A stretch of DNA of 64,000 nucleotides from Escherichia coli (GTDB lineage Bacteria; Pseudomonadota; Gammaproteobacteria; Enterobacterales; Enterobacteriaceae), in NCBI RefSeq assembly GCF_013315695.1, contig NZ_CP054353.1. The stretch is one strand, 5' to 3'. Positions within the stretch are counted from its first letter, which is position 1. The number at the start of each line of letters is the position of its first letter. Made by a program: the position numbers and the translations under genes. This document shows positions 2,399 to 60,859 of this stretch, in pieces. A model generated the notes under the pieces. That model was not told where the DNA came from. It saw nothing but the letters and a program-made list of their open reading frames with translations, and ran no database searches.

Positions 2399-2408
2399 GT
2401 CTCCCTCC

Positions 2409-3410
2409 TTAACGCGCCAGGAATGCGCGCCAGTGGGCGGCGACTTCCGCCAGCTGAGCGCGCGAGACGTCAAGATGCGTCACCAGGCGGACAATCGGCG
2501 AGGCGTTAATCAGCACGTTTCTCGCTTTCATGTATTCGCCTAACGCGGCAGCATTTTCTTCCCCGACGCGAACAAACAGCATATTGGTGTCCTGACGCAT
2601 CACATCCGCGCCTGCTTCACGCAGCTGCTCCGCCATCCAGGCAGCGTTGTCGTGGTCTTCCTGCAAGCGCGCAACGTTATTTTTCAGGGCATATATTCCG
2701 GTGGCAGCCAGAATGCCGGACTGGCGCATCCCGCCACCTGTCATTTTCCGCCAGCGAATGGCACGTTTAATGTAATCACGATTACCGACGAGTAATGAAC
2801 CGACTGGCGTCCCAAGACCTTTCGACAGGCAAATGGTGAACGAATCACAATATTGTGTGATCTCTTTCAGTTCGCAGCCGTAAGCCACCACAGCATTAAA
2901 GATGCGCGCACCGTCCACATGCAGCGCCAGATTGCGCTCGCGGGTAAATTCCCATGCTTCTTTGAGGTATTCACGCGGCAGCACTTTGCCGTTGTGAGTG
3001 TTTTCCAGACTGAGTAATTTGGTGCGGGCGAAATGGATATCGTCGGGTTTGATTTTCATCGCCACTTTATCCAGCGGTAGCGTGCCGTCGGCAGCCGCGT
3101 CGATGGGTTGCGGTTGAATACTGCCCAGCACCGCCGCGCCACCGGCTTCAAACAGATAGTTATGCGCGGCCTGACCGACAATATACTCTTCGCCGCGTTC
3201 ACAGTGACTGAGCAGAGCGACCAGGTTGGCCTGAGTGCCGGTAGGCAGAAAAATGGCGGCTTCTTTACCGGAAAGCTCTGCTGCATAGTCCTGCAGAGCA
3301 TTAACGGTAGGGTCGTCTCCGTAAACGTCGTCCCCAACCGGGGCGGCCATCATCGCTTCGAGCATGGCGCGGCTCGGTCGGGTAACGGTATCACTGCGTA
3401 AATCAATCAT
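2409..3410 (-). CDS. ltaE: low-specificity L-threonine aldolase
   Basis: 333-aa [16 protein letters not shown]..., PLP-dependent aldolase signature; synteny ybjT-ltaE-poxB. Confidence 0.9.
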
Positions 3411-3446
3411 GGCATGTCCTTATTATGACGGGAAATGCCACCCTTT

Positions 3447-5165
3447 TTACCTTAGCCAGTTCGTTTTCGCCAGTTCGATCACTTCATCACCGCGTCCGCT
3501 GATGATTGCGCGCAACATATACAAGCTGAAACCTTTGGCCTGTTCGAGTTTGATCTGCGGTGGAATGGCTAATTCTTCTTTGGCTACTACCACATCCACC
3601 AACACCGGACCGTCGATGGAAAAGGCGCGTTGCAGGGCTTCATCGACTTCAGAGGCTTTTTCCACGCGAATACCCGTAATTCCGCACGCTTCGGCAATGC
3701 GGGCAAAGTTGGTGTCGTGCAGCTCAGTACCGTCTGTCAGGTAGCCTCCGGCTTTCATCTCCATCGCCACAAAGCCCAGCACGCTGTTATTAAAGACGAT
3801 AATTTTCACTGGCAATTTCATCTGCATTACTGAGAGGAAATCGCCCATCAACATACTGAAACCGCCATCGCCGCACATGGCGACCACCTGACGTTCCGGC
3901 TCGGTTGCCTGCGCACCCAGCGCCTGCGGCATGGCGTTAGCCATCGAACCGTGGTTAAACGAACCTAACAGACGACGCTTGCCGTTCATTTTCAGATAAC
4001 GTGCCGCCCACACCGTTGGCGTACCAACGTCACAGGTAAAGATGGCGTCATCGGCGGCAAAATGACTAATTTGCTGCGCCAGATATTGCGGGTGAATGGC
4101 TTTCTCGCTCGGTTTAGCTAAATCATCCAGCCCTTTGCGGGCGTCGCGGTAATCTTCCAGCGCTTTATCCAGAAACTTGCGATCGGTTTTTTCTTCCACC
4201 AGTGGCAGCAATGCCCGCAGGGTTGATTTGATATCGCCGACCAGTGCCATATCTACCTTGCTATGCGCGCCGATGCTGGCTGGGTTGATATCAATCTGAA
4301 TAATTTTGGCATCGGTCGGGTAGAACGCGCGGTAGGGAAATTGCGTGCCGAGCAGCACTAACGTATCGGCATTCATCATGGTATGGAAACCTGACGAGAA
4401 GCCGATTAATCCCGTCATTCCGACATCATACGGATTATCGTATTCGACATGCTCTTTACCGCGCAGGGCATGAACAATAGGCGCTTTAATTTTCCCGGCA
4501 AACTCAACTAACTCTTTATGCGCCCCCGCGCAGCCGCTGCCACACATCAGGGCGATATTGCTGGAATAACGCAGCAGTTGCGCCAGTTTGCGTAACTCTT
4601 CTTCTTCCGGCGTCACGACTGGTTGTGGCGCATTATACCAGTGGGTAGTTGCCCCTTCTGGTGCAGGTTTTAACGCCACGTCGCCCGGTAACACGACAAC
4701 GGAAACGCCACGGTTTAGCACTGCTTTGCGCATAGCAATTGCCAGCACTTGTGGGATCTGCTCTGGGCTGGAAACCAGCTCGCAATAGTGACTACATTCG
4801 CGGAATAGCTCTTGTGGGTGGGTTTCCTGGAAATAGCCGCTGCCAATTTCGCTGGAGGGAATATGAGCGGCAATCGCCAGTACCGGAACGTGATTGCGGT
4901 GGCAATCGAACAGGCCGTTGATTAAGTGCAGGTTGCCGGGGCCGCACGATCCGGCACAGACCGCCAGTTCTCCGCTAAGTTGTGCTTCAGCGCCAGCGGC
5001 AAACGCCGCCACTTCTTCATGCCGGGTGGACATCCACTCGATGGTGCCCATGCGATTAAGACTGTCACTAAGACCGTTCAGAGAGTCGCCCGTGACTCCC
5101 CAGATGCGTTTCACTCCTGCCGATTCGAGTGTTTTGGCGATATAAGCTGCAACCGTTTGTTTCAT
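3447..5165 (-). CDS. poxB: pyruvate oxidase (ubiquinone-dependent pyruvate dehydrogenase), TPP/FAD enzyme
   Basis: 572-aa [34 protein letters not shown]..., TPP-binding GDGG motif. Confidence 0.9.
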
Positions 5166-5297
5166 GGTTCTCCATCTCCTGAATGTGATAACGGTAACAA
5201 GTTTAGTTCATCTGACGGAGGGGGAAGGGATGGGAGAAAAAGGAGGCACTAACGGTTAAATAGCCCGATGAAAGGAATATCATCGGGCATAAGGCGA

Positions 5298-6266
5298 TTA
5301 TGCGAGAACCAAATCCCCCTGCGGATGGCAGGAGCAGGCCAGTACGTAACCTTCAGCGATTTCGGCGTCGGTCAGCGTCATTGTGCTGCTCACCGTATAT
5401 TCACCGGAAACCACTTTCGTCTTACAGCAGCCGCAAACACCTGCGCGGCAGGCGGCGACAACCGGAACGTTATTGCTTTCCAGCGCCTCCAGTAGCGTGG
5501 TGCCAACCGGGGCGTAAAATTCTCGTGCCGGTTGCAGTTTGGTGAATTTCAGACCGCTGATCGCCGCTTCCGCTACTGGGGTGAAGAATTTCTCTTTAAA
5601 GAAACGCGTCACGCCGAGCGCTTTCACTTCCTGCTCTACCCAATCCATATATGGAGCAGGGCCACAGGTCATCACGGTACGTGAGGCTAAATCAGGGACA
5701 CCTGCCAGCAGTTCGCGAGTGAGACGACCAGCGATAAAGCCTTCGGTAACGTTATTTTCCGCCACCAGCGTTACCGGATAGTTACGCCACTCATCGGCGA
5801 AAATCACATCCTGCGGCGTACGCACGTTGTAGATCACCTGCACATCGGCCTGTGGACGGTTCTTCGCCAGCCAGCGACGCATCGACATAATCGGCGTAAC
5901 GCCGCAGCCTGCCGCCAGCAACAGGAATTTATCTTCTGCTTTATCGTCGCAGGTAAATTCCCCCATCGCGTCCGAAAGCCAGAGATAATCACCGCGTTTT
6001 ACATCGCGCGTCAGCCACTGGGAGCCGACACCGTCATCAATCCGCCGCACAGTCAGGGTGATGTATTCACTCACGCCTGGCGTGGAGGAAATGGTGTAAG
6101 CACGCAGCGTTTCCGCTGAGTTACGCACGCTGACCAGTGCATATTGCCCGGCGCGATATGGGTAGTAATCGTGGCAAATCAGGGAAATCGTCCACACATC
6201 CGGCGTTTCTTGCGTAATGTGATGAACCTGCATCCGCCACGGGCATTGATTCGTTGGCATCGTCAT
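5298..6266 (-). CDS. hcr: NADH oxidoreductase for hybrid-cluster protein (FAD/NAD and 2Fe-2S ferredoxin domains)
   Basis: ORF 5298..6272; likely start MTMPTNQCPW at 6266; C-terminal CxxGxCGxC...C 2Fe-2S motif; immediately downstream of hcp. Confidence 0.9.
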   Translation of the reverse strand: MTMPTNQCPWRMQVHHITQETPDVWTISLICHDYYPYRAGQYALVSVRNSAETLRAYTISSTPGVSEYITLTVRRIDDGVGSQWLTRDVKRGDYLWLSDAMGEFTCDDKAEDKFLLLAAGCGVTPIMSMRRWLAKNRPQADVQVIYNVRTPQDVIFADEWRNYPVTLVAENNVTEGFIAGRLTRELLAGVPDLASRTVMTCGPAPYMDWVEQEVKALGVTRFFKEKFFTPVAEAAISGLKFTKLQPAREFYAPVGTTLLEALESNNVPVVAACRAGVCGCCKTKVVSGEYTVSSTMTLTDAEIAEGYVLACSCHPQGDLVLA

Positions 6267-8073: not shown

Positions 8074-8973
8074 TTACGCGGAAAAAAAGGCGATGAGGAT
8101 CGGCACTAACAGGCTGAGAATAAAACCGTGAACAATCGCCGCCGGGACCATATCCAGCCCGCCAGTACGTTGAAGAACGGGCAGGGTGAAATCCATCGAC
8201 GTCGCACCGCATAAGCCCAGTGCAGTAGAGCGGCTACGGCGAATCAGCCCAGGGATTAACATAATAGCAATCAGCTCACGGGCCAGATCATTAAAAAACG
8301 CCGCGCTCCCGATTACTGGACCAAAAGATTCGGTCAATAAAATACCGGAAAGAGAATACCAGCCGAAACCGGAGGCCATTGCCAGCGCGGTATTGATGGG
8401 AAGATCAAGAATAAAGGCGTTAATTAAACCACCAATTAATGAACTGGCAACCACCACCACGGCGACAATCATTCCCCGGCGATTAAGGACAATCTGCTTT
8501 AAGGTCATGCCATTATTGCGCAACTGAATACCGACGAGGAAAAGTAGCAGAATTAAGGTGTATTCACTGGCTTTGGTCGCGTGTTGTAAGAAAGCCAGTC
8601 CACTCAGACCAATGGCAAAACCAATCACTACTACGCCGCACAGTTTTAGCGACTCCAGTGCCATCGCAATACGCGACGGGAGTTTTTCTTGATGATGGTG
8701 GTTGCGCCATGGCAGGCCGCGCTCCAGCCACAACAACGCAATAATATTGCAGAGTAAAATAATGGTAATGCTGACGGAGGAATAATGCAGAATCGCCAAC
8801 AGGTTACTGGCGAGGTTATCGAGAAACGCCAGACTGATACCCATAAAAAAGAGAATGAGGTAAACCATCCAACTTAATAGCTGATTAATAACTCTTAATG
8901 CAGCTTTTTGGCGAAGCGGAATGAGGTAACCCACAATCAGGGGAACCAGAATGATTAACAGCCCAGAAAACAT
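8074..8973 (-). CDS. ybjE: lysine exporter LysO (YbjE), inner-membrane protein
   Basis: ORF 8074..9021, highly hydrophobic; likely start MFSGLLIILVPL at 8973. Confidence 0.85.
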   Translation of the reverse strand: MFSGLLIILVPLIVGYLIPLRQKAALRVINQLLSWMVYLILFFMGISLAFLDNLASNLLAILHYSSVSITIILLCNIIALLWLERGLPWRNHHHQEKLPSRIAMALESLKLCGVVVIGFAIGLSGLAFLQHATKASEYTLILLLFLVGIQLRNNGMTLKQIVLNRRGMIVAVVVVASSLIGGLINAFILDLPINTALAMASGFGWYSLSGILLTESFGPVIGSAAFFNDLARELIAIMLIPGLIRRSRSTALGLCGATSMDFTLPVLQRTGGLDMVPAAIVHGFILSLLVPILIAFFSA

Positions 8974-9312
8974 GAAAACCCAGTCCTTGCAAAGATGAAG
9001 TCGAAATGCGCGATGACACACTACTGAAAGCGGAAGGACGAGTAAAGTTGCAATTAAAAGGAAATGTTATGCAAAAGGAGCAGTAGAGTATTCGTTTTCA
9101 TTTAAAGATGTTCTTGCGCTTTAATTACAAACCGCACCGGTGTTGGTGGCGTCAAAATCGCTGAAGCGTTCCCCGAAGGCCGGGGCAGCCCACATGGATG
9201 TGGGCTGAGGGCGCGTCTTACAAGGATAATGAGATGGACGCTCCAGATTTTACGGTATCAAAGTACCAGACTGGATCGTTGCAATACGTCCTGAAAAATT
9301 AGGGGCGTCCAC

Positions 9313-10338
9313 ATGAAAGTATCAACTCTTGGTATCGACCTGGCAAAGAACGTTTTTCAGCTTCATGGTGTCGATCATGAAGGCCATACTATTTTGCGTA
9401 AAAAGCTCACCCGGGCTAAGTTTGTTCAGTTTGTGATTCAACTGGAACCTTGTCTGATTGGCATGGAAGCCTGCTCATCCAGTCATTATTTTGCGCGATT
9501 ATTCACCCGCTATGGTCATGAGGTAAAACTCATACCTCCGCAGTATGTGAAGCCTTATGTGAAAACGAACAAGACGGATGCAGCAGATGCTGAAGCAATC
9601 TGCGAAGCGGTAACCCGTCCGAATATGCGTTTTGTTCAGATAAAAACCGAAGAGCAGCAGGCCGTTTTAGCGTTACACACTGAACGGGGAATACTTATCC
9701 GTGAGCGGATTGCCTGTGCCAATAGTTTAAGAGCCACACTTGCTGAGTTTGGTATTACGATTGCGGCCGGACAAAGCCATTTAACACGTGAGCTGCCAGC
9801 CATTCTGGAGGATGGCGAAAATGGTTTATCTCCCTTTGTCAGAACCAGCATCTACAGACAGTCTAAACATATCCGGGAACTTGAAGAACAAGTTAAACAG
9901 GTAGAAGAAGCTCTGGCCTCCTGGTATAGAACGCAGGAAGCCTGCCAGAGAATGGCCAAGATCCCGGGGGTTGGCATGCTAACGGCCACTTATGTGGTAG
10001 CAGCAGTGGGTAATGCCCGACAATTCAGTACCGCAAAGCAGTTCGCTTCATGGCTGGGGCTGACACCAAAGGAACATTCCAGCGGCGGGAAACAGCAACT
10101 GGGAGGGATCAGCAAACGTGGAGATGGATATTTCCGATACCTGCTGGTTCACGGCGCACGCGCACTTACCGCCTGGGTCAACCGAAACGGCGCGGTTGAG
10201 GAGAATTCCTGGCTTCAGGGACTCCTTGAGCGGAAGCACTACAATGTAGCTGTTGTCGCCATGGCGGCAAAAACAGCGAGGATCATGTGGTCAATGTTGT
10301 CACACAATACTGAATATCAACCTCGGCAGCTCGCCTGA
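9313..10338 (+). CDS. IS110-family (IS1111-subgroup-like) transposase
   Basis: 341-aa ORF MKVSTLGIDLAKNVFQLHG...EACSSSHYFAR...VKSNKTDAADAEAICEA; matches the N-terminal RuvC-like DEDD architecture of IS5075/IS1111-type transposases as I recall them. Confidence 0.85.
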   Translation: MKVSTLGIDLAKNVFQLHGVDHEGHTILRKKLTRAKFVQFVIQLEPCLIGMEACSSSHYFARLFTRYGHEVKLIPPQYVKPYVKTNKTDAADAEAICEAVTRPNMRFVQIKTEEQQAVLALHTERGILIRERIACANSLRATLAEFGITIAAGQSHLTRELPAILEDGENGLSPFVRTSIYRQSKHIRELEEQVKQVEEALASWYRTQEACQRMAKIPGVGMLTATYVVAAVGNARQFSTAKQFASWLGLTPKEHSSGGKQQLGGISKRGDGYFRYLLVHGARALTAWVNRNGAVEENSWLQGLLERKHYNVAVVAMAAKTARIMWSMLSHNTEYQPRQLA

Positions 10339-10800
10339 CACAAGGTCAGTCAATCTGACGAGGTGCTGAAAAAAAGTTAACGTCCTGGTAGGTGCAGGTG
10401 ACTTCAGAAGATGGCAAAACAGGTAAGACCGCAGGCAGGATACACCGAGAGGTAACAAGGGCAAGTTAGCCCGTAGAGGATGATTGGTACCTGCCTGGCG
10501 GATTTCATCATGGTTCGGGATAAAAATCCCATCAGAAACCGGATATATGGCTGCACCTACCCGTTTTATTACATAACTGAAGAAAGCATTGCATTCCGGG
10601 AGCGTCCATATATGTTACCTCGCGCCCGACCCGGTAGCCGTAAGGGATAAGCCGAGGGCACCGCGCAGCGGCGATTTTGTTCGCCAGAGCCCGGGGGTGC
10701 AGGGGGCGGCGGCGATTGGCCGCCCCCTGCGCGCTCCTTGCGCCAGTGATTATATGAAGCAATGCACATGACAGGAGCGCAACAGGATGAGAGACTGAAC
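10339..10800 (+). ncRNA. candidate IS-encoded guide (seekRNA/bridge-RNA-like) structured region at the 3' end of the transposase
   Basis: No credible ORF; GC-rich with strong hairpins, e.g. gcagggggcggc-ggcgattg-gccgccccctgc near 10700; IS1111-subgroup elements carry their guide RNA downstream of tnp. Confidence 0.3.
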
Positions 10801-10840
10801 TATTCTCGTTATTTTCGGACCTGATGACATTAATTAATTT

Positions 10841-10924
10841 TAAAATATCATCTTAAATACGCCAGTCACCACCAGTAGCCCAATCAGGAAAATAATCAAT
10901 ACAGCCCAGAGTATAATTTTCATT
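10841..10924 (-). CDS. yohP: small membrane protein YohP (27 aa)
   Basis: Minus-strand ORF translating to MKIILWAVLIIFLIGLLVVTGVFKMIF; too short for the ORF track. Confidence 0.85.
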
Positions 10925-11146
10925 GGCGTTCCTTTATTTGTGAGTGCTGAATAAGTATAGGAAAAAACGAAGCCCTTTGCCGCTATTCATAAACGATTAA
11001 GATAAATCGGAAGATATCATTCGCTTAGTGTATATTTTTCTGGATATGTCGTTTTATTGCCACTGATGTATTGCCACGCGAAACTAAAAAATATATCGCA
11101 ACACACGGTAATCTCCGCGCACCTTTTCTTACCTGATTATTCCCCC

Positions 11147-12583
11147 ATGAATCGTGATTCTTTTTATCCAGCCATCGCCTGTTTTCCGCTGTTACTGATG
11201 CTAGCCGGGTGTGCGCCTATGCATGAAACCCGCCAGGCGTTAAGCCAGCAAACACCCGCGGCACAAGTTGACACCGCATTACCCACGGCGCTGAAAAATG
11301 GTTGGCCAGACAGCCAATGGTGGCTGGAGTATCACGATAATCAACTCACCTCATTAATTAATAACGCACTACAGAACGCACCGGATATGCAGGTGGCTGA
11401 ACAGCGCATTCAGCTGGCTGAAGCCCAGGCGAAGGCAGTTGCCACTCAGGATGGTCCACAGCTCGACTTTTCTGCGGATATGGAGCGGCAAAAAATGTCG
11501 GCAGAAGGGTTAATGGGGCCGTTTGCTTTGAACGATCCTGCCGCAGGTACGACCGGTCCGTGGTACACCAACGATACTTTTGGCTTAACGGCGGGCTGGC
11601 ATCTCGATATCTGGGGAAAGACTCGGGCGGAGGTTACTGCTCGCCTCGGTACGGTTAAAGCACGGGCGGCGGAACGCGAGCAAACCCGCCAATTGCTGGC
11701 TGGCAGCGTAGCCCGCCTGTACTGGGAGTGGCAAACCCAGGCGGCGTTAAACACGGTCTTACAGCAAATCGAAAAAGAGCAGAACACCATTATCGCCACC
11801 GATCGCCAGCTATATCAGAACGGGATTACTTCTGCAGTTGAAGGTGTGGAAACCGATATTAATGCCAGCAAAACCCGGCAGCAGCTCAACGATGTCGCGG
11901 GGAAAATGAAAATTATTGAGGCACGGTTAAGTGCGCTCACCAACCACCAGACAAAGTCATTGAAGCTTAAACCGGTCGCGTTGCCGAAAGTGGCAAGTCA
12001 GCTTCCTGATGAACTCGGGTACTCCTTACTGGCCCGGCGGGCAGATTTGCAGGCGGCGCACTGGTACGTTGAGTCATCGTTAAGCACTATTGATGCGGCA
12101 AAAGCGGCATTTTATCCTGACATCAACCTGATGGCCTTTCTGCAACAGGATGCGTTGCACTTAAGCGATCTGTTCCGTCATTCCGCGCAGCAAATGGGCG
12201 TTACGGCAGGCCTGACGCTACCCATTTTCGATAGTGGTCGTCTTAACGCCAATCTCGATATCGCAAAAGCCGAAAGCAACTTGTCTATCGCCAGCTACAA
12301 CAAAGCGGTGGTTGAAGCGGTAAATGACGTGGCGCGGGCGGCCAGCCAGGTTCAGACACTGGCGGAGAAAAACCAGCATCAGGCGCAAATTGAGCACGAT
12401 GCCTTGCGTGTGGTAGGTCTTGCGCAGGCGCGCTTTAACGCGGGCATCATTGCTGGTTCCCGCGTCAGCGAAGCCAGAATCCCCGCGCTGCGTGAGCGGG
12501 CCAATGGCCTGTTATTGCAAGGGCAGTGGCTGGATGCCTCCATTCAACTCACCGGTGCGCTGGGCGGGGGTTACAAACGCTGA
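11147..12583 (+). CDS. mdtQ: multidrug efflux outer-membrane factor lipoprotein (OprM/NodT family), apparently intact
   Basis: ORF 11057..12583; likely start MNRDSFYPAIACFPLLLMLAGC (lipobox) at 11147; OMF family features. Confidence 0.8.
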   Translation: MNRDSFYPAIACFPLLLMLAGCAPMHETRQALSQQTPAAQVDTALPTALKNGWPDSQWWLEYHDNQLTSLINNALQNAPDMQVAEQRIQLAEAQAKAVATQDGPQLDFSADMERQKMSAEGLMGPFALNDPAAGTTGPWYTNDTFGLTAGWHLDIWGKTRAEVTARLGTVKARAAEREQTRQLLAGSVARLYWEWQTQAALNTVLQQIEKEQNTIIATDRQLYQNGITSAVEGVETDINASKTRQQLNDVAGKMKIIEARLSALTNHQTKSLKLKPVALPKVASQLPDELGYSLLARRADLQAAHWYVESSLSTIDAAKAAFYPDINLMAFLQQDALHLSDLFRHSAQQMGVTAGLTLPIFDSGRLNANLDIAKAESNLSIASYNKAVVEAVNDVARAASQVQTLAEKNQHQAQIEHDALRVVGLAQARFNAGIIAGSRVSEARIPALRERANGLLLQGQWLDASIQLTGALGGGYKR

Positions 12584-14095: not shown

Positions 14096-14264
14096 AGGAC
14101 AGTCTGTCTCCCTTTGCTTGCCTGTAAGCATACACCCTGTGAATCATTCACGCTGAAAAAGGACGTACATCAGACGGTGCAAATTACATGAGCGAACAAA
14201 AAATAATCACAAGCTGACTTATACTTGAACTGTCAGGTTCATGAACTCACAACAAGGGGGCGGT

Positions 14265-14852
14265 ATGAGCCATGTCTGGGGACTGTTTTCCCATCCCGAT
14301 CGTGAAATGCAGGTGATTAATCGCGAAAACGAAACGATTTCTCACCATTACACCCACCACGTTTTGCTGATGGCGGCGATTCCGGTGATTTGCGCCTTCA
14401 TTGGCACTACACAGATTGGCTGGAATTTTGGCGATGGCACTATCCTGAAGTTATCCTGGTTTACCGGACTGGCGCTGGCTGTCTTGTTTTACGGCGTTAT
14501 GCTGGCTGGGGTTGCGGTGATGGGGCGGGTCATCTGGTGGATGGCGCGTAATTATCCGCAGCGTCCGTCACTTGCGCACTGCATGGTCTTCGCGGGCTAC
14601 GTTGCAACTCCGCTGTTTTTAAGCGGTCTGGTGGCGCTTTACCCGCTGGTCTGGTTGTGTGCGCTGGTCGGCACGGTGGCGCTGTTTTACACCGGCTACC
14701 TGCTGTATCTCGGTATTCCGAGCTTCCTGAATATCAACAAAGAGGAAGGACTTAGCTTCTCCAGTTCGACACTGGCGATAGGCGTGCTGGTGCTGGAAGT
14801 GCTGCTCGCCCTTACCGTTATACTATGGGGCTACGGTTATCGTTTGTTCTAG
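14265..14852 (+). CDS. yohC: Yip1-family inner-membrane protein YohC
   Basis: ORF 14241..14852; likely start MSHVWGLFSHPDRE at 14265; multi-pass membrane. Confidence 0.85.
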   Translation: MSHVWGLFSHPDREMQVINRENETISHHYTHHVLLMAAIPVICAFIGTTQIGWNFGDGTILKLSWFTGLALAVLFYGVMLAGVAVMGRVIWWMARNYPQRPSLAHCMVFAGYVATPLFLSGLVALYPLVWLCALVGTVALFYTGYLLYLGIPSFLNINKEEGLSFSSSTLAIGVLVLEVLLALTVILWGYGYRLF

Positions 14853-24340: not shown

Positions 24341-25027
24341 TTAAATGCCGAGTGGGAAAATATCATGGCCTTGTTCCTGCCAACTGGTGAGTTGCTGCTG
24401 TTGGGCGGAGGTTCGATTTTCACCGCACCACACCAGCAATGTACGGCCTTCGAACAGTTCAGGGCGTAGTTGATTGAGCGAGTGGGCGAGGACATCAATG
24501 CGCCATCCTTGTTGACTGGCAATCCAGCCCTCCAGCCACAGACGGGTGGTATCCTGAATATTCCAGCCAACCACCAGCGCATCTTTACCCTGTTTTTTAC
24601 GTGCCGAAGCCAGACAAATGGCAATGTAGTTGATCAGTACGCCGTCGAGGATCGCCAGCAGCGCCTGGAGAGTCGGTTGTTGGCACTGAAGCCGTCGGCG
24701 CAGTGGAATGAACAGATGTGTGGTGAGTGTCTGGGCGGGGTAATCCTGACCGCGCTCTTTGATCCACGTTCGCAGGCTATGCAGATTGCCGCTTTGCAGG
24801 TAAGTCAGTAATGTTTCTTGCTGATCGCGCCAGCCGTTCTGCACATCAACATTTTCATTACTGAGCAGCATTTTTACTTTGCTGACCTGCACGCCATTGT
24901 CGATCCAGCGTTTGATCTCGCGGATCCGGTCAATATCGGCATCGTTGAACAGCCGATGACCGCCGTCTGTCCGTTGCGGTTTCAGCAATCCGTAACGCCT
25001 CTGCCACGCGCGTAACGTGACAGGGAT
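24341..25027 (-). pseudogene. mlrA: MerR-family curli regulator MlrA (YehV), 5' end replaced by prophage DNA
   Basis: Reading frame matches MlrA from ...PVTLRAWQRRYGLLKPQRTDGGHRLF onward; upstream codons diverge and hit an in-frame stop, with no ATG for the native N-terminus (MALYTIGEVALLCDIN missing); first in-frame ATG gives the 215-aa ORF 24341..24988. Confidence 0.7.
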
Positions 25028-25062: not shown

Positions 25063-26349
25063 TTACCCCACTTTCTTATGGGGCATACATGGGACACTTT
25101 CAGATAGTCTTTTGTTAAGGAGTTCTATCTGTTCGTGATTGTTGTCTTTCATCCATGCTCCGTAAACATTGAATACCATTTGTGCGTTTGTGTGGCCCAT
25201 CTGGCTTGCGATAAAACTAGGATTAGCTCCAGCGGCAAGTGACCAGCATGCATAAGTATGCCTGGATTGGTACGATTTTCTGTGTCTCAGACCTGCGTGT
25301 TTTAAGATACTTGTCCATGACTCCCTGATGGAGTCAACCTTATAGTGCGGTCCGGAAAACTGCCGCTGTTTTATTACCTGAGGACTAAAAACAAAAGTGC
25401 ATTTATGCACAGTACTTCTCCCATATTCCCTCTGCTTTACCTCTACAGAATGTTGCTTTCCAAGCATGGTCATTTCCGCCTGACTTTTAAGAGCATCAAT
25501 AGCTGGTTGAACCAGATGAATTGTCCTTCCGGTGCCAGCATCGGTTTTTGGTGGAGTGAATTCGCCAAGTTTTGTATAATTCCTACGGATGGTTATAGTC
25601 CTTGCTTTAAGATCTATATCTTCCCATGCCAGCGATACCAGCTCCCCGTGACGAATACCCGTGTATACAGCGAGAATCCACAGGTTTTTTGTTTGTTGAT
25701 GACGGCAAGCCTCAATAAAACGAATAAATTCGTCACGGGTGAGAGGATCTGGTTTTACCTTGGACTTTTTTAAGGGAGCCAGACCGTTAAATGGGTTTCC
25801 TGAGGTATAACCATTATCTGTTGCAAATTGAAACATTCCAGCTATGGTTGTCATATAGTAGTTTACCGTGACCACTGAGCGCCCTTTTATGGAAGAAGTC
25901 TTTCCATTAGAAAGTTTTTGGTAACCGGTCAACAAATCTCTCCTTACGAAAAGTAAATCCTCTTTTGTTATGGATGAAACCAGTTTTTTTTCACCTAACA
26001 TTGGTAACATGTTTTTAATTACTGACTGGTAACGGTTAAGTGCATTCGCACAAATCTCAATTTTCTTAAGGTCCAACCATTTTTCCGAAAGTGCCTTAAC
26101 GGTTATCTCTCTTTTTCCCAGACCAAAGTGTTTCAGGTTAGGGGAATTAGGGAACTGCGCGGAGTAGTCGAAACTCCCCATTCTGATTGCAAAACAAACG
26201 GAAGTGCGAAGTTCACCAGCGATCTTCCGGTTTTTGGCTGTGTCAGGAACACCGAGGTTTTCTCTGACACGTTTGCCATTATAGTGAAACCATATACGGA
26301 GTGATCCTCCATGGTTTTCAACGCCTGTCGGGTATGATGCGTTACTCAT
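25063..26349 (-). CDS. int: tyrosine-type site-specific integrase
   Basis: 428-aa ORF with R (GIRHGEL), HxxR (SRHTYA) and catalytic Y (VFNVYGAW) motifs; adjacent to the attL junction. Confidence 0.9.
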   Translation of the reverse strand: MSNASYPTGVENHGGSLRIWFHYNGKRVRENLGVPDTAKNRKIAGELRTSVCFAIRMGSFDYSAQFPNSPNLKHFGLGKREITVKALSEKWLDLKKIEICANALNRYQSVIKNMLPMLGEKKLVSSITKEDLLFVRRDLLTGYQKLSNGKTSSIKGRSVVTVNYYMTTIAGMFQFATDNGYTSGNPFNGLAPLKKSKVKPDPLTRDEFIRFIEACRHQQTKNLWILAVYTGIRHGELVSLAWEDIDLKARTITIRRNYTKLGEFTPPKTDAGTGRTIHLVQPAIDALKSQAEMTMLGKQHSVEVKQREYGRSTVHKCTFVFSPQVIKQRQFSGPHYKVDSIRESWTSILKHAGLRHRKSYQSRHTYACWSLAAGANPSFIASQMGHTNAQMVFNVYGAWMKDNNHEQIELLNKRLSESVPCMPHKKVG

Positions 26350-31766: not shown

Positions 31767-32459
31767 TTAATTGTGTCGCTTAAGGGTCTGTGACTGACTG
31801 ATTAAGACCTTTCCAAAGACCATAAACCGGTGTTCGTTTTCGCTGGTAATTCCCCATTCGCGGTAAATCTGATTATCAGAAATTACCAGCAGTTTATCAG
31901 GTATCATTTGCAGTCGTTTGACGTAAATTTTATCATCAAAACCAAATACATATATACCATCCCCATCAAACTGATTGATACTGATATCAACGAAGATGAG
32001 ATCTCCTGGCTCAATGGTTGGACACATACTGTCCCCACGAACGTTGATAACTTTAATGTGATTTGCTGGTCGTCCACCAAACATCGATACAGCATTATCA
32101 GTTCTGTATTCAATGGCATGAATCACATCAATGACATCACCGCCCTGGATAAGGCCATTTCCCGCACTGGCACTGACATCCAGCATTTCAATACGGAATA
32201 CATCCTTCACCTGCGTAACATCCTCACTAATACTGTTTTTACATACAGTATTACTTTTGAGGTCTGAGGTAAAGAGATCAGCAATATCAACACCTAAGCT
32301 CCTGGCAATATTACTCAGGGCTTGTTCAGTGAATTGTTTCTGCTTACCTGTTTCGAGGCGCGAGATATTCGCCGCATCCACTCCTATTGCTTCAGCGAGA
32401 TCGGCGATTTTCATGTTCTTCGCCTGGCGAAGTTGTCTGACTCGATTTCCTATGTTCAT
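31767..32459 (-). CDS. cI: CI-like phage repressor (HTH plus S24 LexA-like peptidase domain)
   Basis: 230-aa ORF with N-terminal HTH (IADLAEAIGVDAANISRLETGK) and C-terminal S24 motifs (GDSMCPTI ... KRL); divergent from cro. Confidence 0.85.
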   Translation of the reverse strand: MNIGNRVRQLRQAKNMKIADLAEAIGVDAANISRLETGKQKQFTEQALSNIARSLGVDIADLFTSDLKSNTVCKNSISEDVTQVKDVFRIEMLDVSASAGNGLIQGGDVIDVIHAIEYRTDNAVSMFGGRPANHIKVINVRGDSMCPTIEPGDLIFVDISINQFDGDGIYVFGFDDKIYVKRLQMIPDKLLVISDNQIYREWGITSENEHRFMVFGKVLISQSQTLKRHN

Positions 32460-42691: not shown

Positions 42692-42767
42692 GGCCCTTTA
42701 GCTCAGTGGTGAGAGCGAGCGATTCATAATCGCCAGGTCGCTGGTTCAAATCCAGCAAGGGCCACCA
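42692..42767 (+). tRNA. tRNA with CAU anticodon (Ile2/Met-type; ileZ-like)
   Basis: Cloverleaf GGCCCTT-TA-GCTCAGTGGTGAGAGC..anticodon loop TTCATAA..GGTTCAAATCC..AAGGGCC-A-CCA. Confidence 0.85.
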
Positions 42768-42774
42768 TCACATA

Positions 42775-42851
42775 CCGCCATTAGCTCATCAGGATAGAGC
42801 GCCAGCCTTCGAAGCTGGTTGCGCGGGGTTCGAGTCCTCGATGGCGGTCCA
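42775..42851 (+). tRNA. tRNA-Arg (anticodon UCG; argN-like)
   Basis: Acceptor CCGCCAT/ATGGCGG, anticodon loop CTTCGAA, T-loop GGTTCGAGTCC, encoded CCA. Confidence 0.8.
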
Positions 42852-42864
42852 TTATCTGTACCCT

Positions 42865-42941
42865 GCGTTATTAGCTCAGCCGGACAGAGCAATTGCCTTC
42901 TAAGCAATCGGTCACTGGTTCGAATCCAGTACAACGCGCCA
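42865..42941 (+). tRNA. tRNA-Arg (anticodon UCU; argO/argU-like)
   Basis: GCGTTATTAGCTCAGCCGGACAGAGC..anticodon loop CTTCTAA..GGTTCGAATCC..CGCCA, close to host argU. Confidence 0.8.
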
Positions 42942-42980: not shown

Positions 42981-43433
42981 AAATGTCTCACAATTCAGAC
43001 GGTTGACAGTTGTCTGTTTTGCGGGGAGTTTGTTAAAAGAAACTGGCATGGTGAATCCCCCTGTGCGGAGGGGCAATCAGCAACTGGTGTTTTGTCACCG
43101 ACCCTTATCCTTTCTGTGCGGGTTCAGGTGCTGATACTGAACTCACCGGGAGGCACCCGGCATCATGTGCATGATGATACAGATACGCGGCTTTAGCCCC
43201 TCTCCGGAGGGGCTTTCTTGTGGGCAAAAAAAAGCCCGAGTGGGTTCGGGCAACAGCATGAGATATACATTTTTATAATCGAATGGATTTTAACCAGAAT
43301 TCATAAGGCTGCGCAACTGCGCGGTCTTTTTCGAATTGCGGGCTGTCGTCTCTCTTCTGCCATTGTCCTGTAACTTCCGGACTTCAGCCCGCTCCTTATT
43401 TTACTCACAATATTATCCCGGCCGGGAGGATTC

Positions 43434-50308: not shown

Positions 50309-50818
50309 GTGGCTACGCAGACTGAAGTTGCCAGGCATTTAAGTCTGACCGATCGCCAGCTTCGCAGATTGCAGAAATTGCCGGGTGCCCCGATATCGAA
50401 TAAGCGAGGGCAACTGGATCTGGATGCCTGGCGCGATTTTTACATATCGTATCTGAGAAGAAGTAAAAACGATGTGCCTGATGGCGATAGCGAAGACGAC
50501 TATGAGGAGAAATTGCTTATTGCCAGATGGGAACTGACAGCAGAACAGGCTGTTACACAGCAGTTAAAAAATGAGGTGTCAAAAGGAAAACTTATTGACA
50601 CCGGGTTCTGTATTTTTGCCCTCAGCAAGCTGGCAATGGCGTTATCCAGTACGCTTGATTCCATCCCTTTATCCATGCAGCGACAGTTTCCTGATTTAAC
50701 ACCGCGCCATCTTGACCATCTGAAAACCCTTATTGCGAAGGGGGCAAATCAGTGTGCGCGGGCGGGGGATAAATTACCGGATTTACTCGATGAATATATC
50801 AGAGCAACAACTGAATAA
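50309..50818 (+). CDS. terminase small subunit (Nu1-like)
   Basis: 169-aa ORF (GTG start); C-terminal similarity to lambda Nu1. Confidence 0.8.
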   Translation: MATQTEVARHLSLTDRQLRRLQKLPGAPISNKRGQLDLDAWRDFYISYLRRSKNDVPDGDSEDDYEEKLLIARWELTAEQAVTQQLKNEVSKGKLIDTGFCIFALSKLAMALSSTLDSIPLSMQRQFPDLTPRHLDHLKTLIAKGANQCARAGDKLPDLLDEYIRATTE

Positions 50819-52707
50819 TATGATGAGTGCTGTCACAACAGCATTACAGCCCCTGATAAGGGCATTGCCGGTGACGCCAGTTGAATGGGCTGATCAAAAT
50901 TATTATCTGCCTAAAGAATCTTCATATGGTGAGGGAGAATGGAAAACGCTGCCGTTCCAGATCGCCATCATGAACAGCATGGGGAATGATCAGATCCGGA
51001 CTGTTAATCTGATTAAATCTGCCCGTGTTGGCTATACAAAGATGTTGCTGGGGGTGGTCGGGTATTTTATTGAGCATAAATCCCGAAACAGTCTGCTTTT
51101 TCAGCCCACGGATTCTGCCGCTGAAGATTTTATGAAGTCTCACGTGGAGGCGACGATTCGGGATGTGCCATGTCTGAAAGACCTTTCTCCATGGCTGGGG
51201 CGTAAACATCGTGACAATACTCTCACGCTGAAACGCTTTTCATCGGGTGTGGGCTTCTGGTGCCTGGGCGGCGCTGCCGCCAAAAACTACCGTGAAAAAT
51301 CCGTGGACGTGGTCTGCTATGACGAACTTTCCTCGTTCGAACCGGATGTCGAAAAAGAGGGTTCGCCAACCCTGCTTGGGGATAAACGTATTGAGGGCTC
51401 TGTATGGCCCAAATCCATTCGCGGCTCGACGCCTAAAATCAAAGGCACCTGCCAGATCGAAAAAGCGGCCAACGAGTCGGCGCATTTCATGCGTTTTTAT
51501 GTGCCCTGCCCGCACTGTGGGGAGGCGCAGTATCTGAAATTTGGCGATGAGTCCACGCCTTTTGGCCTTAAATGGGAGAAGGACAGCCCCGAAAGCGTTT
51601 TCTACCTCTGTGAACATCATGGCTGCGTGATCCATCAGTCTGAGCTTGACCAGAGCAACGGGCGGTGGATCTGTGAAAACACGGGGATGTGGACCCGCGA
51701 CGGTCTGACGTTTTTCAGCGCTGCGGATAATGAAATTCCGCCGCCGCGCTCCATCACATTCCATATCTGGACGGCGTACAGTCCGTTCACCACCTGGGTA
51801 CAGATTGTCTATGACTGGCTGGATGCACTGAAAGATCCCAACGGCCTGAAAACCTTTGTGAACACCACGCTGGGCGAGACCTGGGAAGAGGCCGTGGGCG
51901 AAAAACTCGATCACCAGGTGCTGATGGATAAGGTTGTGCGTTACACGGCTGCGGTGCCTTCCCGGGTGGTTTATCTGACGGCGGGCATTGACTCGCAGCG
52001 AAACCGTTTTGAGATGTATGTCTGGGGATGGGCTCCGGGAGAGGAAGCCTTTCTGGTGGATAAAATCATCATTATGGGGCGTCCCGATGAGGAAGAGACG
52101 CTGTTACGTGTGGATGTGGCGATCAACAAAAAATACCGCCATGCAGACGGAACCGAAATGACCATTTCCCGTGTCTGCTGGGACACCGGGGGGAATTGTC
52201 TATCAGAGGTCAAAAAAACACGGTGTTTTCCGGGTGCTGCCGGTAAAAGGTGCATCTGTTTATGGCAAGCCGGTGATCACCATGCCAAAAACCCGCAATC
52301 AGCGGGGCGTGTATCTGTGCGAAGTGGGGACGGACACCGCAAAAGAAATTCTCTATGCCCGTATGAAAGCCGATCCCACGCCTGCGGATGAAGCCACGTC
52401 GTATGCCATCCGTTTTCCTGATGATCCGGAGATTTTTTCGCAGACAGAGGCGCAGCAACTGGTGGCGGAAGAGCTTGTGGAGAAGTGGGAAAAAGGAAAG
52501 ATGCGTCTGCTGTGGGATAACAAAAAGCGGCGTAACGAAGCGCTGGACTGCCTGGTGTATGCCTACGCGGCATTACGTGTGTCCGTGCAACGCTGGCAGC
52601 TTGATCTGGCTGTACTGGCAAAATCCCGGGAAGAAGAGACGACCCGGCCAACCCTTAAAGAACTGGCAGCGAAGCTGTCCGGAGGAGTGAATGGTTACAG
52701 TCGCTGA
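50790..52707 (+). pseudogene. terminase large subunit (lambda A-like) with a frameshift at 52188-52193
   Basis: N-terminal frame (MNISEQQLNN...RVCWDTGG) and C-terminal frame (GIVYQRSKKHGVFRVLPVKGASVYGKPV...) both match lambda gpA as recalled, but are offset by one base at a run of six G. Confidence 0.8.
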
Positions 52708-52897
52708 ACTGCAGGCGCTGCGTCAGGCGCGCCTTGATTTATTAACCGGTAAACGGGTGGTGTCTGTCCAGAAAGATGGTCGCAGAATTGAATATACGGC
52801 AGCTTCTCTGGATGAGCTTAACCGGGCGATCAATGATGCGGAGTCGGTACTGGGGACAACCCGCCGTCGCCGTCGTCCGCTGGGAGTGAGGTTATGA
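52691..52897 (+). CDS. head-tail joining protein W
   Basis: 68-aa ORF ...LTGKRVVSVQKDGRRIEYTAASL... close to lambda gpW. Confidence 0.85.
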   Translation: MVTVAELQALRQARLDLLTGKRVVSVQKDGRRIEYTAASLDELNRAINDAESVLGTTRRRRRPLGVRL

Positions 52898-54486
52898 AAC
52901 GAACGCCTGTCCTGATTGATGTGAACGGCGTTCCGCTTCGGGAGAGCCTCAGCTACAACGGTGGCGGTGCAGGATTTGGCGGGCAAATGGCAGAGTGGTT
53001 GCCACCCTCGCAGAGTGCCGATGCGGCCCTGCTGCCCGCGTTGCGTCTGGGGAATGCCCGTGCAGATGATCTGGTGCGCAATAACGGAATAGCGGCCAAT
53101 GCGGTGGCCCTGCATAAGGATCACATTGTCGGGCATATGTTTCTGATCAGTTACCGTCCGAACTGGCGCTGGCTGGGGATGCGGGAGACCGCGGCAAAAA
53201 GTTTTGTCGATGAGGTGGAGGCGGCCTGGTCAGAATACGCAGAAGGGATGTTTGGTGAGATCGACATGGAAGGGAAACGCACGTTCACGGAATTTATCCG
53301 TGAAGGTGTGGGCGTTCATGCGTTTAACGGCGAAATCTTTGTGCAGCCGGTCTGGGATACGGAGAGCACGCAACTGTTTCGTACGCGTTTTAAAGCCGTG
53401 AGTCCGAAACGGGTGGACACGCCAGGACACGGTATGGGGAACCGTTTTCTGCGGGCCGGTGTGGAGGTCGATCGATATGGTCGTGCCGTTGCGTACCATA
53501 TCTGTGAGGATGATTTTCCTCGCTCCGGGAGTGGACGATGGGAACGGATCCCGCGTGAACTTCCCACCGGGCGTCCGGCCATGCTGCATATTTTCGAGCC
53601 GGTGGAGGACGGGCAGACCCGTGGGGCCAATCAGTTTTACAGCGTAATGGAACGGCTGAAGATGCTCGATTCCCTGCAGGCAACACAGCTTCAGTCGGCC
53701 ATAGTGAAGGCGATGTATGCAGCGACGATTGAAAGTGAACTTGATACCGAAAAGGCCTTTGAATATATCGCCGGTGCGCCGCAGGGGCAGAAGGATAATC
53801 CGCTTATTAATATTCTGGAGAAGTTCTCCACCTGGTATGACACGAATAGCGTGACGCTGGGCGGTGTCAAAATTCCGCACCTTTTCCCCGGTGATGATCT
53901 GAAACTTCAGACCGCGCAGGATTCAGACAATGGATTTTCGGCGCTTGAACAGGCGCTGCTGCGGTATATCGCCGCCGGTCTTGGCGTTTCCTACGAACAG
54001 TTGTCCCGTGATTACTCGAAGGTCAGTTATTCAAGTGCCCGCGCATCCGCCAATGAGTCGTGGCGCTATTTTATGGGGCGGCGAAAATTTATTGCGTCCC
54101 GGCTGGCCACGCAGATGTTTTCCTGCTGGCTGGAAGAGGCACTTCTTCGGGGGATTATTCGTCCGCCACGGGCGCGTTTTGATTTTTATCAGGCGCGATC
54201 AGCCTGGTCACGGGCTGAGTGGATTGGAGCCGGAAGAATGGCCATTGACGGGCTCAAGGAGGTTCAGGAATCAGTGATGCGCATTGAGGCCGGACTGAGC
54301 ACGTATGAGAAAGAGCTGGCGCTGATGGGCGAGGATTATCAGGACATTTTCCGCCAGCAGGTCAGGGAATCTGCAGAGCGGGAAAAAGCCGGACTCTCAC
54401 GTCCGGTGTGGATAGCGCAGGCGTATCAGCAGCAGATAGCGGAGAGTCGCAGGCCGGAAGAGGAGACAACACCACGTGAGACGTAA
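52894..54486 (+). CDS. portal protein (lambda B-like)
   Basis: 530-aa ORF with long near-identical stretches to lambda gpB (VEDGQTRGAN.FYSVME..KMLD.LQ.TQLQSAIVKAMYAATIESELDT). Confidence 0.9.
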   Translation: MKRTPVLIDVNGVPLRESLSYNGGGAGFGGQMAEWLPPSQSADAALLPALRLGNARADDLVRNNGIAANAVALHKDHIVGHMFLISYRPNWRWLGMRETAAKSFVDEVEAAWSEYAEGMFGEIDMEGKRTFTEFIREGVGVHAFNGEIFVQPVWDTESTQLFRTRFKAVSPKRVDTPGHGMGNRFLRAGVEVDRYGRAVAYHICEDDFPRSGSGRWERIPRELPTGRPAMLHIFEPVEDGQTRGANQFYSVMERLKMLDSLQATQLQSAIVKAMYAATIESELDTEKAFEYIAGAPQGQKDNPLINILEKFSTWYDTNSVTLGGVKIPHLFPGDDLKLQTAQDSDNGFSALEQALLRYIAAGLGVSYEQLSRDYSKVSYSSARASANESWRYFMGRRKFIASRLATQMFSCWLEEALLRGIIRPPRARFDFYQARSAWSRAEWIGAGRMAIDGLKEVQESVMRIEAGLSTYEKELALMGEDYQDIFRQQVRESAEREKAGLSRPVWIAQAYQQQIAESRRPEEETTPRET

Positions 54487-60445: not shown

Positions 60446-60859
60446 ATGGGGAGACCCGACTGGCGCGCCATGCTTGCCGGGATGACATCCACCGAATATG
60501 CCGACTGGCACCGTTTTTACCGCACGCATTATTTTCAGGATACCCAGCTGGATATGCATTTTTCCGGGCTGACGTACGCTGTACTCAGCCTGTTTTTTTG
60601 CGATCCGGATATGCATCCCTCTGATTTCAGTCTGCTTGTCCCCCGGCATGAGGAAGAGCAGGTGGAGAGGCCGGATGAGGACAAAATGCTGATGCAGAAA
60701 GCGGCAGGACTTGCCGGAGGCGTCCGGTTCGGTGGGGACGGAGGGCGCGATATTTTATCGTCTGCGGATGTGGCGGATGTCATGGTGGATGATGCCGCAT
60801 TAATGATGGCTTCAGCGGGGATTCCGGGAGGTGTGAGATATGTCCCAGCCGGTTGGTGA
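60446..60859 (+). CDS. T-frame portion of the G-T tail assembly protein
   Basis: 137-aa ORF in the -1 frame relative to G, ends overlapping the H start. Confidence 0.7.
   Translation: MGRPDWRAMLAGMTSTEYADWHRFYRTHYFQDTQLDMHFSGLTYAVLSLFFCDPDMHPSDFSLLVPRHEEEQVERPDEDKMLMQKAAGLAGGVRFGGDGGRDILSSADVADVMVDDAALMMASAGIPGGVRYVPAGW

Follow-up and report, generated by a model that had tools for sequence, protein, structure and literature searches.

The DNA studied here is a 64,000-nucleotide stretch from Escherichia coli (contig NZ_CP054353.1, assembly GCF_013315695.1), hereafter called the window, in which an insertion sequence (IS) separates two groups of genes that are far apart in strain K-12. Annotation transfer and reading of the sequence gave the order lysO, an IS110-family element, yohP and mdtQ. 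The lysO gene (ybjE; 8074-8973, minus strand) is the last gene of the left block, which corresponds to the 0.9-Mb region. Its coordinates were transferred from the RefSeq annotation of strain IAI39, whose locus is 98.9% identical to the window, with support from the list of open reading frames (ORFs) and from the K-12 alignment. On the other side of the element, yohP (10840-10923, minus strand; transferred IAI39 annotation and K-12 alignment) is the first gene of the right, 2.2-Mb block, which is inverted with respect to K-12. It is followed by mdtQ (yohG; 11147-12583, plus strand), which is open over its full length within an ORF at 11057-12583 that has no internal stop. In K-12 MG1655, the gene next to lysO is aqpZ, at about 915 kb, and the gene next to yohP is dusC, at about 2,229 kb. 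Comparison of the IAI39 and K-12 annotations showed that the block running from yohP to dld (mdtQ-yohF-yohD-yohC-pbpG-dld) is oppositely oriented in K-12. The original prediction, made from the sequence of the window, was that the ybjE region is joined here to the yohP-mdtQ region and that the two blocks are inverted and lie about 1.3 Mb apart elsewhere. The adjacency was confirmed in the window, and the blocks are 1.314 Mb apart in K-12, with opposite orientation.

Alignment showed that the lysO-aqpZ homology of K-12 is unbroken up to position 9227 of the window and that the yohP-dusC homology, reverse-complemented, resumes at position 10614. The boundaries of the element, set by comparison with the uninterrupted repeats of K-12 described below, are 9228-10613 (plus strand, 1386 bp). 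The element had been placed at 9022-10840, which is the entire lysO-yohP intergenic space. Overall, the junction marks an end of a genuine inversion, by which about 1.3 Mb of the chromosome around the replication terminus are reversed in one lineage of E. coli.

The element was predicted to belong to the IS110/IS1111 family, and its protein and its ends both agree with this. The transposase gene (9313-10338, plus strand; ORF list and Pfam) encodes 341 amino acids with a DEDD/RuvC-like domain (PF01548, DEDD_Tnp_IS110, residues 6-146, 1e-14) and a Transposase_20 domain (PF02371, residues 211-289, 4.4e-24). Its C-terminal domain aligns to the solved transposases of IS621 and ISCro4, the similarity being distant. 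As read from the sequence, the left subterminal inverted repeat ATGGACGCTCC (9233-9243, plus strand) is the reverse complement of positions 10599-10609, the right one being GGAGCGTCCAT (plus strand). The two repeats stand 5 and 4 nt from the ends of the element, as in IS110/IS1111 elements. The stop codon is followed by 275 nt (10339-10613), as compared to 85 nt before the start codon, which corresponds to the long downstream non-coding region of the IS1111 type. The transposase is identical at 337 of 341 residues (98.8%) to that of ISEc81 in ISfinder (sequence in the supplement of PMC11187229), from which it differs by A91T, S155N, W288R and E297K. In RefSeq it is annotated as WP_000868863.1 in strains IAI39, MS 21-1 and CE10. 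As judged from sequence, the element is an isoform of ISEc81, in the IS1111 group of the IS110 family. ISEc11 was considered as its identity and rejected, because both the target and the protein differ. When the right end is joined to the left end, the sequence TTGCAT-16 nt-TAT↓AAT is obtained (the arrow marks the joint). A junction promoter typical of the family would thus be formed at the predicted circle junction of ISEc81. A search of the literature by ISfinder name found ISEc81 in survey lists only, and the supplements of PMC11187229 contain no target logo text for it.

In K-12, the lysO-aqpZ and yohP-dusC intergenic regions share a GC-rich repeat, about 270 bp long, whose orientation in the first is opposite to that in the second. 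Alignment of the two K-12 loci with each other and with the flanks of the element in the window identified this repeat as TRIP1. The locations agree with those of TRIP1a, between ybjE and aqpZ, and TRIP1c, between yohG (mdtQ) and yohI (dusC), in a repeat family (Rudd 1999) that is GC-rich and about 146-273 bp long (PMC10888264). The window contains two halves of TRIP1, one on each side of the IS. The left half (9132-9227, plus strand, 96 bp; alignment with K-12 lysO-aqpZ) is derived from TRIP1a and linked to lysO; it contains the hairpin GCCCAC-AUGGAU-GUGGGC, ends ...CTTACAAGGAT at the IS and shows lineage variants common to CE10 and IAI39. The right half (10614-10791, plus strand, 178 bp; alignment with K-12 yohP-dusC) is derived from TRIP1c and linked to yohP, and its distal diagnostic bases GTGATTATATGAAGCAATGCACATGACAGG are of the TRIP1c type. 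The original prediction is supported in placing IS copies at the origin of the junction, but it missed this pre-existing inverted host repeat, TRIP1a/TRIP1c, which is an alternative substrate for recombination.

The IS interrupts TRIP1 at ...ACAGGGAT↓GTTACCTCGCG..., where the arrow marks the insertion point, and does so at the same base at both loci. Joining the two flanks restores the uninterrupted TRIP1 of K-12 (GGGAT↓GTTACC), with no target-site duplication. A third copy of ISEc81, in strain MS14384 (NZ_LR130562.1), lies between yegH and asmA, where it interrupts a more divergent TRIP1-like sequence at this same base. The position and the orientation of ISEc81 relative to TRIP1 are identical at TRIP1a, at TRIP1c and at the yegH-asmA copy. 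Therefore, insertion of ISEc81 is both site-specific and orientation-specific.

The distribution of the element and of its junctions was determined in 5,426 complete E. coli genomes. The 1386-bp unit is present in 179 of them, in most cases at 99% identity or more, with a median of 2 copies and a maximum of 4. The inverted junction lysO-IS-yohP was found in 84 genomes, including IAI39 and SMS-3-5, whose junctions are 98.7-98.9% identical to that of the window. An inverted junction without the IS was found in none of the 5,426 genomes. The large rearrangement that had been proposed is thus real, but it is not specific to one strain: the gene order is the normal one for a whole lineage and has been published. 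The un-inverted junctions carrying the IS are rarer, with lysO-IS-aqpZ in 8 genomes and dusC-IS-yohP in 10. Five genomes (CE10, Res13-Lact-PER13-34, XJ6.1, JNEC-KY178 and LR778147.1) have both un-inverted junctions, which is the state expected of a precursor, or of a revertant.

A second copy of the IS had been predicted between dusC and aqpZ. This reciprocal junction, dusC-IS-aqpZ, was found full-length in MS 21-1, the closest relative of the window (99.9% identity at the junction). The IS at this place differs from that of the window by 1 nt in 1386, and the two copies are inverted. A reciprocal query, made of the predicted dusC, TRIP1 left half, IS, TRIP1 right half and aqpZ and counted from 80% coverage upwards, was matched in 97 genomes. 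This number is the sum of the 84 inverted genomes and of 13 un-inverted genomes with the IS. It follows from the counts, by an argument that is indirect but consistent, that the IS is present at both junctions in each of the 84 inverted genomes. As a separate observation, CE10 and IAI39 are both O7:K1 and have IS and flank variants in common; CE10 has the un-inverted order with the IS at TRIP1a and at TRIP1c, and in IAI39 the order is inverted. This difference would mean that the segment has flipped inside the clone, unless the assembly of CE10, which is older, took its orientation from a reference.

The position of the crossover was deduced from diagnostic bases in the lineage of the window and MS 21-1. 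Left of the IS, the TRIP1 half linked to lysO ends ...TCTTACAAGGAT and the half linked to dusC ends ...TTTTACAGGGAT. On the right side, the half linked to aqpZ has the bases C (+28) and T (+46), where the half linked to yohP has T and C. In un-inverted CE10, the same variants are linked to lysO and to aqpZ. This linkage places the crossover in the lineage of the window within an interval from -5 to +28 with respect to the IS. The interval measures 1,419 bp; the IS accounts for 1,386 bp of it (about 98%) and flanking TRIP1 for 33 bp. Together with the count of zero IS-free inverted genomes, this interval favours recombination between IS copies over recombination between bare TRIP1 repeats. Recombination between two IS copies, as originally suggested, is supported by that same count.

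The inversion itself is already known, since it has been published in three papers. Wang et al. (2017) described in SMS-3-5 an inversion of 1.402 Mb with a 1606-bp inverted repeat containing WP_000868863.1, and named the transposase but neither TRIP1 nor the IS family (PMC5372343, Table S8). Goodall et al. (2021) noted the inversion in the context of the replication fork trap (PMC8347550). Li et al. (2024) attributed an inversion of 1,313,407 bp to recombination between TRIP1a and TRIP1c, without mention of an IS (PMC10888264). The inversion of SMS-3-5 and IAI39 has the same breakpoints as the window (ybjE/aqpZ and yohG-yohP/yohI-dusC), the same WP_000868863.1 and the same size class. The strain is different, the window being closest to MS 21-1. 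The present analysis is a modest refinement of this known case: ISEc81 is specific for TRIP1, by the counts each inverted genome has it at its two junctions, and in the lineage of the window the crossover is placed in the IS. A probable role of the IS is thereby added to the rearrangement that Li et al. described for TRIP1.

We favour, with a probability of roughly 85%, an inversion produced by recombination of two inverted ISEc81 copies that had been targeted to TRIP1a and TRIP1c. As suggested by the insertion pattern, ISEc81 would first have entered the target ...A(C/A)A(G/A)GGAT↓GTTACCTCGCG..., in the second TRIP1 hairpin, at both loci. The two copies would then have become inverted repeats of 1.4 kb with about 99.9% identity. 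Their inverted arrangement follows from the fact that TRIP1a and TRIP1c are mutually inverted and that the IS enters TRIP1 in one orientation. Finally, host homologous recombination between the IS copies would have inverted the intervening segment, giving lysO-IS-yohP at one end and dusC-IS-aqpZ at the other. In this scheme, homing of ISEc81 converts two weak inverted repeats of 270 bp into strong ones of 1.4 kb. Reuse of the same breakpoints would result from the homing of ISEc81, a site-specific and RNA-guided element, to one particular hairpin of TRIP1.

Several observations weigh against this scheme. The reciprocal junction was seen only in relatives of the window's strain. Part of the strict association of the IS with the inversion could be due to common descent, from a small number of events instead of many. 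In addition, TRIP1a and TRIP1c already form a pair of inverted repeats, each about 270 bp long, with 94% identity, and other rearrangements of the TRIP1 type (a/b, a/e and others) have no known IS role (PMC10888264). Lastly, in the lineage of CE10 and IAI39 the right halves of TRIP1 do not differ between the two loci over their proximal part of some 130 nt. As a result of this homogenisation the crossover is unmappable in that lineage, and an attempt to map it in IAI39 with CE10 as the un-inverted comparator had to be rejected as impossible. Judging from these identical sequences, exchange or gene conversion within TRIP1 has clearly occurred there.

These points lead to the view of Li et al., in which TRIP1a and TRIP1c recombined directly. 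On such a reading ISEc81 would have inserted into the hybrid TRIP1 copies as a passenger, before or after the event, TRIP1 being simply its target. The similarity and the inverted disposition of the two repeats speak for it, as does the exchange or conversion evident in the right halves of CE10 and IAI39; moreover, the a/c pair accounts for 137 of 156 reported TRIP1 rearrangements (PMC10888264). In contrast, no IS-free inverted junction occurs in the 5,426 genomes, as compared to 84 genomes with the IS at both ends. The IS also offers about five times more homology than TRIP1, at about 99.9% identity against 94%, and the crossover interval of the window's lineage, from -5 to +28 of the IS, leaves just 33 bp of TRIP1 available. 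We therefore consider direct recombination between the TRIP1 repeats unlikely.

The breakpoints in K-12 are at 915.1 and 2,229.3 kb, with a midpoint at about 1,572 kb, and dif lies at about 1.59 Mb in K-12. The case therefore shows the features of a terminus-symmetric, IS-mediated inversion, with inverted, near-identical IS copies at the breakpoints and a midpoint near dif. The inverted segment is about 1.3 Mb long in K-12 coordinates and about 1.4-1.6 Mb in the carriers, for instance about 1.58 Mb in MS 21-1 and 1.40 Mb in SMS-3-5. Within the inverted segment of that strain lie terE, D, A, C and B, and the fork trap stays functional (PMC8347550). Since the breakpoints are nearly symmetric about the terminus, the balance of the replichores and the Tus/ter fork trap are preserved. 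This would explain why the inversion has persisted in the IAI39/SMS-3-5 lineage. When genomes of the lineage are scaffolded against K-12, the inversion is to be expected.

In IS1111-type elements, the seekRNA is encoded in the downstream non-coding region, its segment matching the top strand lies 5′ of the segment matching the bottom strand, and the two matches overlap in the target (PMC11187229). RNA folding of the whole downstream non-coding region of the window element gave a z-score of -2.9. A candidate seekRNA hairpin was found at 10420-10512 (plus strand), folded as a long stem with an internal loop that carries a small central hairpin. The putative top-strand guide GAGGUAACA (10449-10457, plus strand), which came from a k-mer search, lies in the internal loop, on its 5′ side, and is complementary to the target T↓GTTACCTC. 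The putative bottom-strand guide (A)GGAUG (10477-10482, plus strand) is on the 3′ side of the same loop and is identical to the top strand of the target, (A/G)GGAT↓G. The two matches share 2 nt, TG, which span the insertion point. A guide match of at least 9 nt was obtained in 65 of 2000 shuffles (about 3% by chance), and the bottom-strand match of 5-6 nt is short and weak alone. The 9-nt match is therefore suggestive when taken as a sequence, and the placement of the guide in the loop adds to it. The architecture and the position of the candidate agree with those of the published IS1111-type seekRNA (PMC11187229). Overall, it is plausible that ISEc81 carries a seekRNA guide for the TRIP1 target. 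In the searchable papers, no description of a TRIP1 target or of a seekRNA of ISEc81 was found.

A covariation test of the guides was uninformative, as the only diverged match covering the non-coding region is a plasmid remnant with identical guides. This remnant, at 2493-2880 of plasmid NZ_JBSQBR010000002.1, corresponds to the 3′ part of an ISEc81-like element, is 93% identical with the same guide region, and has a type VI secretion cluster next to it. The flank on the right, GCTGCCACC, only partially resembles the TRIP1 target, and the remnant may represent an off-target insertion. Another short match was noted near the right end of the IS in the window, where the 7-mer CGTTTTA (10562-10568) matches the left flank of the target (GCGTTTTACAGG). 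It could be due to chance, or be part of a longer guide or of a donor-recognition segment.

An element whose transposase is intact and which has a plausible RNA guide, in a family that performs RNA-guided recombination (PMC11187229), might also have catalysed the inversion itself. The recombinase and the seekRNA of ISEc81 would then have joined the left-end junction of one copy to the right-end junction of the other, inverted copy, in the manner of engineered bridge-RNA inversions. As reasoned from the chemistry of excision, however, such a reaction should directly leave a hybrid TRIP1 without the IS at one of the junctions and a tandem dimer of the IS at the second. What is found is a single 1386-bp IS at each junction and no IS-free inverted junction, so that catalysis by the recombinase appears highly improbable. 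The chance that the junction is an assembly artefact, through collapsed or mis-joined copies of a 1.4-1.7-kb repeat, is practically nil. Assemblies from short reads can be led astray by repeats of such a length, and CE10 is un-inverted while the equally O7:K1 IAI39 is inverted. Mis-assembly, which the original prediction gave as a possible refutation, is nevertheless excluded: 84 complete genomes, assembled independently in many laboratories, have this very junction, their reciprocal junctions, including that of MS 21-1, are consistent with it, and the inversion stands in three papers (PMC5372343, PMC8347550, PMC10888264).

A broader claim would be that occupancy by ISEc81, and not TRIP1, decides whether TRIP1a and TRIP1c recombine. 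In its strongest form, the segment would flip recurrently and reversibly within a clone, as with un-inverted CE10 and inverted IAI39, both O7:K1, promoted or catalysed by the seekRNA-guided recombinase. We hold this to be quite unlikely. If occupancy were decisive, the published attribution of megabase rearrangements to TRIP1 would in fact reflect the activity of an IS that is guided to TRIP1 by an RNA. If the flip were guided by the seekRNA, it would be a natural counterpart to engineered bridge-RNA inversions.

ISEc81 shares with its family the subterminal inverted repeats, the downstream non-coding region, the lack of target duplication and the site-specific insertion. Within the same subgroup, ISEc11 (PMC11187229) has the same layout, with a transposase of about 340 amino acids followed by a non-coding region. 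As predicted for ISEc81, the two elements would also share a guide in an internal loop, a match to the top strand located 5′ of that to the bottom strand, the overlap of these matches at the insertion point and a promoter at the circle junction. The targets differ, being GTGAAAATACTG for ISEc11 and ACAGGGAT↓GTTACCTCG for the ISEc81 of the window. The two transposases are clearly different, and the seekRNA and the circle of ISEc81 are predicted ones. IS621, ISPpu9 and other members of the IS110 family that target repetitive extragenic palindromic (REP) sequences are likewise RNA-guided elements with a DEDD recombinase that home to a hairpin-forming intergenic repeat. Like ISEc81, such elements accumulate at predictable, repeated chromosomal sites. 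Unlike REP, which is present in hundreds of copies, TRIP1 occurs 3-5 times per genome. Moreover, the non-coding region is upstream in IS110/IS621-type elements and downstream in ISEc81, as in the IS1111 type. ISEc81 and TRIP1 offer a natural IS1111-type pair of guide and target that is directly testable.

Some further observations were made on the TRIP1 loci. The yegH-asmA locus is absent from the five TRIP1 loci (a-e) listed in PMC10888264. In MS14384, its TRIP1-like copy adjoins the remnant of a toxin-antitoxin system of the RelE/ParE type (positions 2900-4520 of the extracted locus). In many genomes with a single copy of ISEc81, this copy lies at about 1.8-1.9 Mb, which may be the yegH-asmA site. 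The uninterrupted TRIP1a and TRIP1c of K-12 resemble the Rfam family TwoAYGGAY (RF01731), with scores of 30.6 and 30.9 bits (E-values of 0.007 and 0.005), below the gathering threshold of 43 bits. The matches are at 10037-10176 of the TRIP1a locus extract and at 14230-14381 of the TRIP1c extract. The first loop of TRIP1, AUGGAU, fits the AYGGAY motif, whereas the second loop, AGGGAU, does not. The insertion point of ISEc81 coincides with the loop of this second, AYGGAY-like hairpin. In view of the sub-threshold scores, TRIP1 was not assigned to the TwoAYGGAY RNAs and the similarity is reported as a resemblance only. The Rfam scan of the IS-interrupted region gave nothing meaningful, and no literature linking TRIP1 to TwoAYGGAY was found.

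Other features of the window lie away from the junction. The mdtQ gene, open over its full length in the window, is annotated as a pseudogene with an internal stop in K-12, IAI39 and CE10. The right 39 kb of the window (25063-64000) are filled by a lambdoid prophage, which begins directly after a shortened mlrA (yehV). The ORF of the latter, at 24341-24988, encodes 215 amino acids as compared to 243 in K-12. The prophage carries an integrase (25063-26349, minus strand), a CI-like repressor (31767-32459), tRNAs (42692-42938), STnc100 (43017-43225), AsxR (43229-43281), a terminase (50733-52391), a portal protein (52894-54486) and a tape measure protein (60840-63401). The mlrA/yehV gene is a known attachment site of Shiga toxin (Stx) phages. 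In contrast to the window, MS 21-1 has an intact mlrA and no prophage there. The MS 21-1 locus extract contains at 2408-5432 a small island that is absent from the window, with a tyrosine integrase and an HNH endonuclease, located between two copies of the thiM thiamine pyrophosphate (TPP) riboswitch. This arrangement suggests an integrative element that targets and duplicates the thiM TPP riboswitch.

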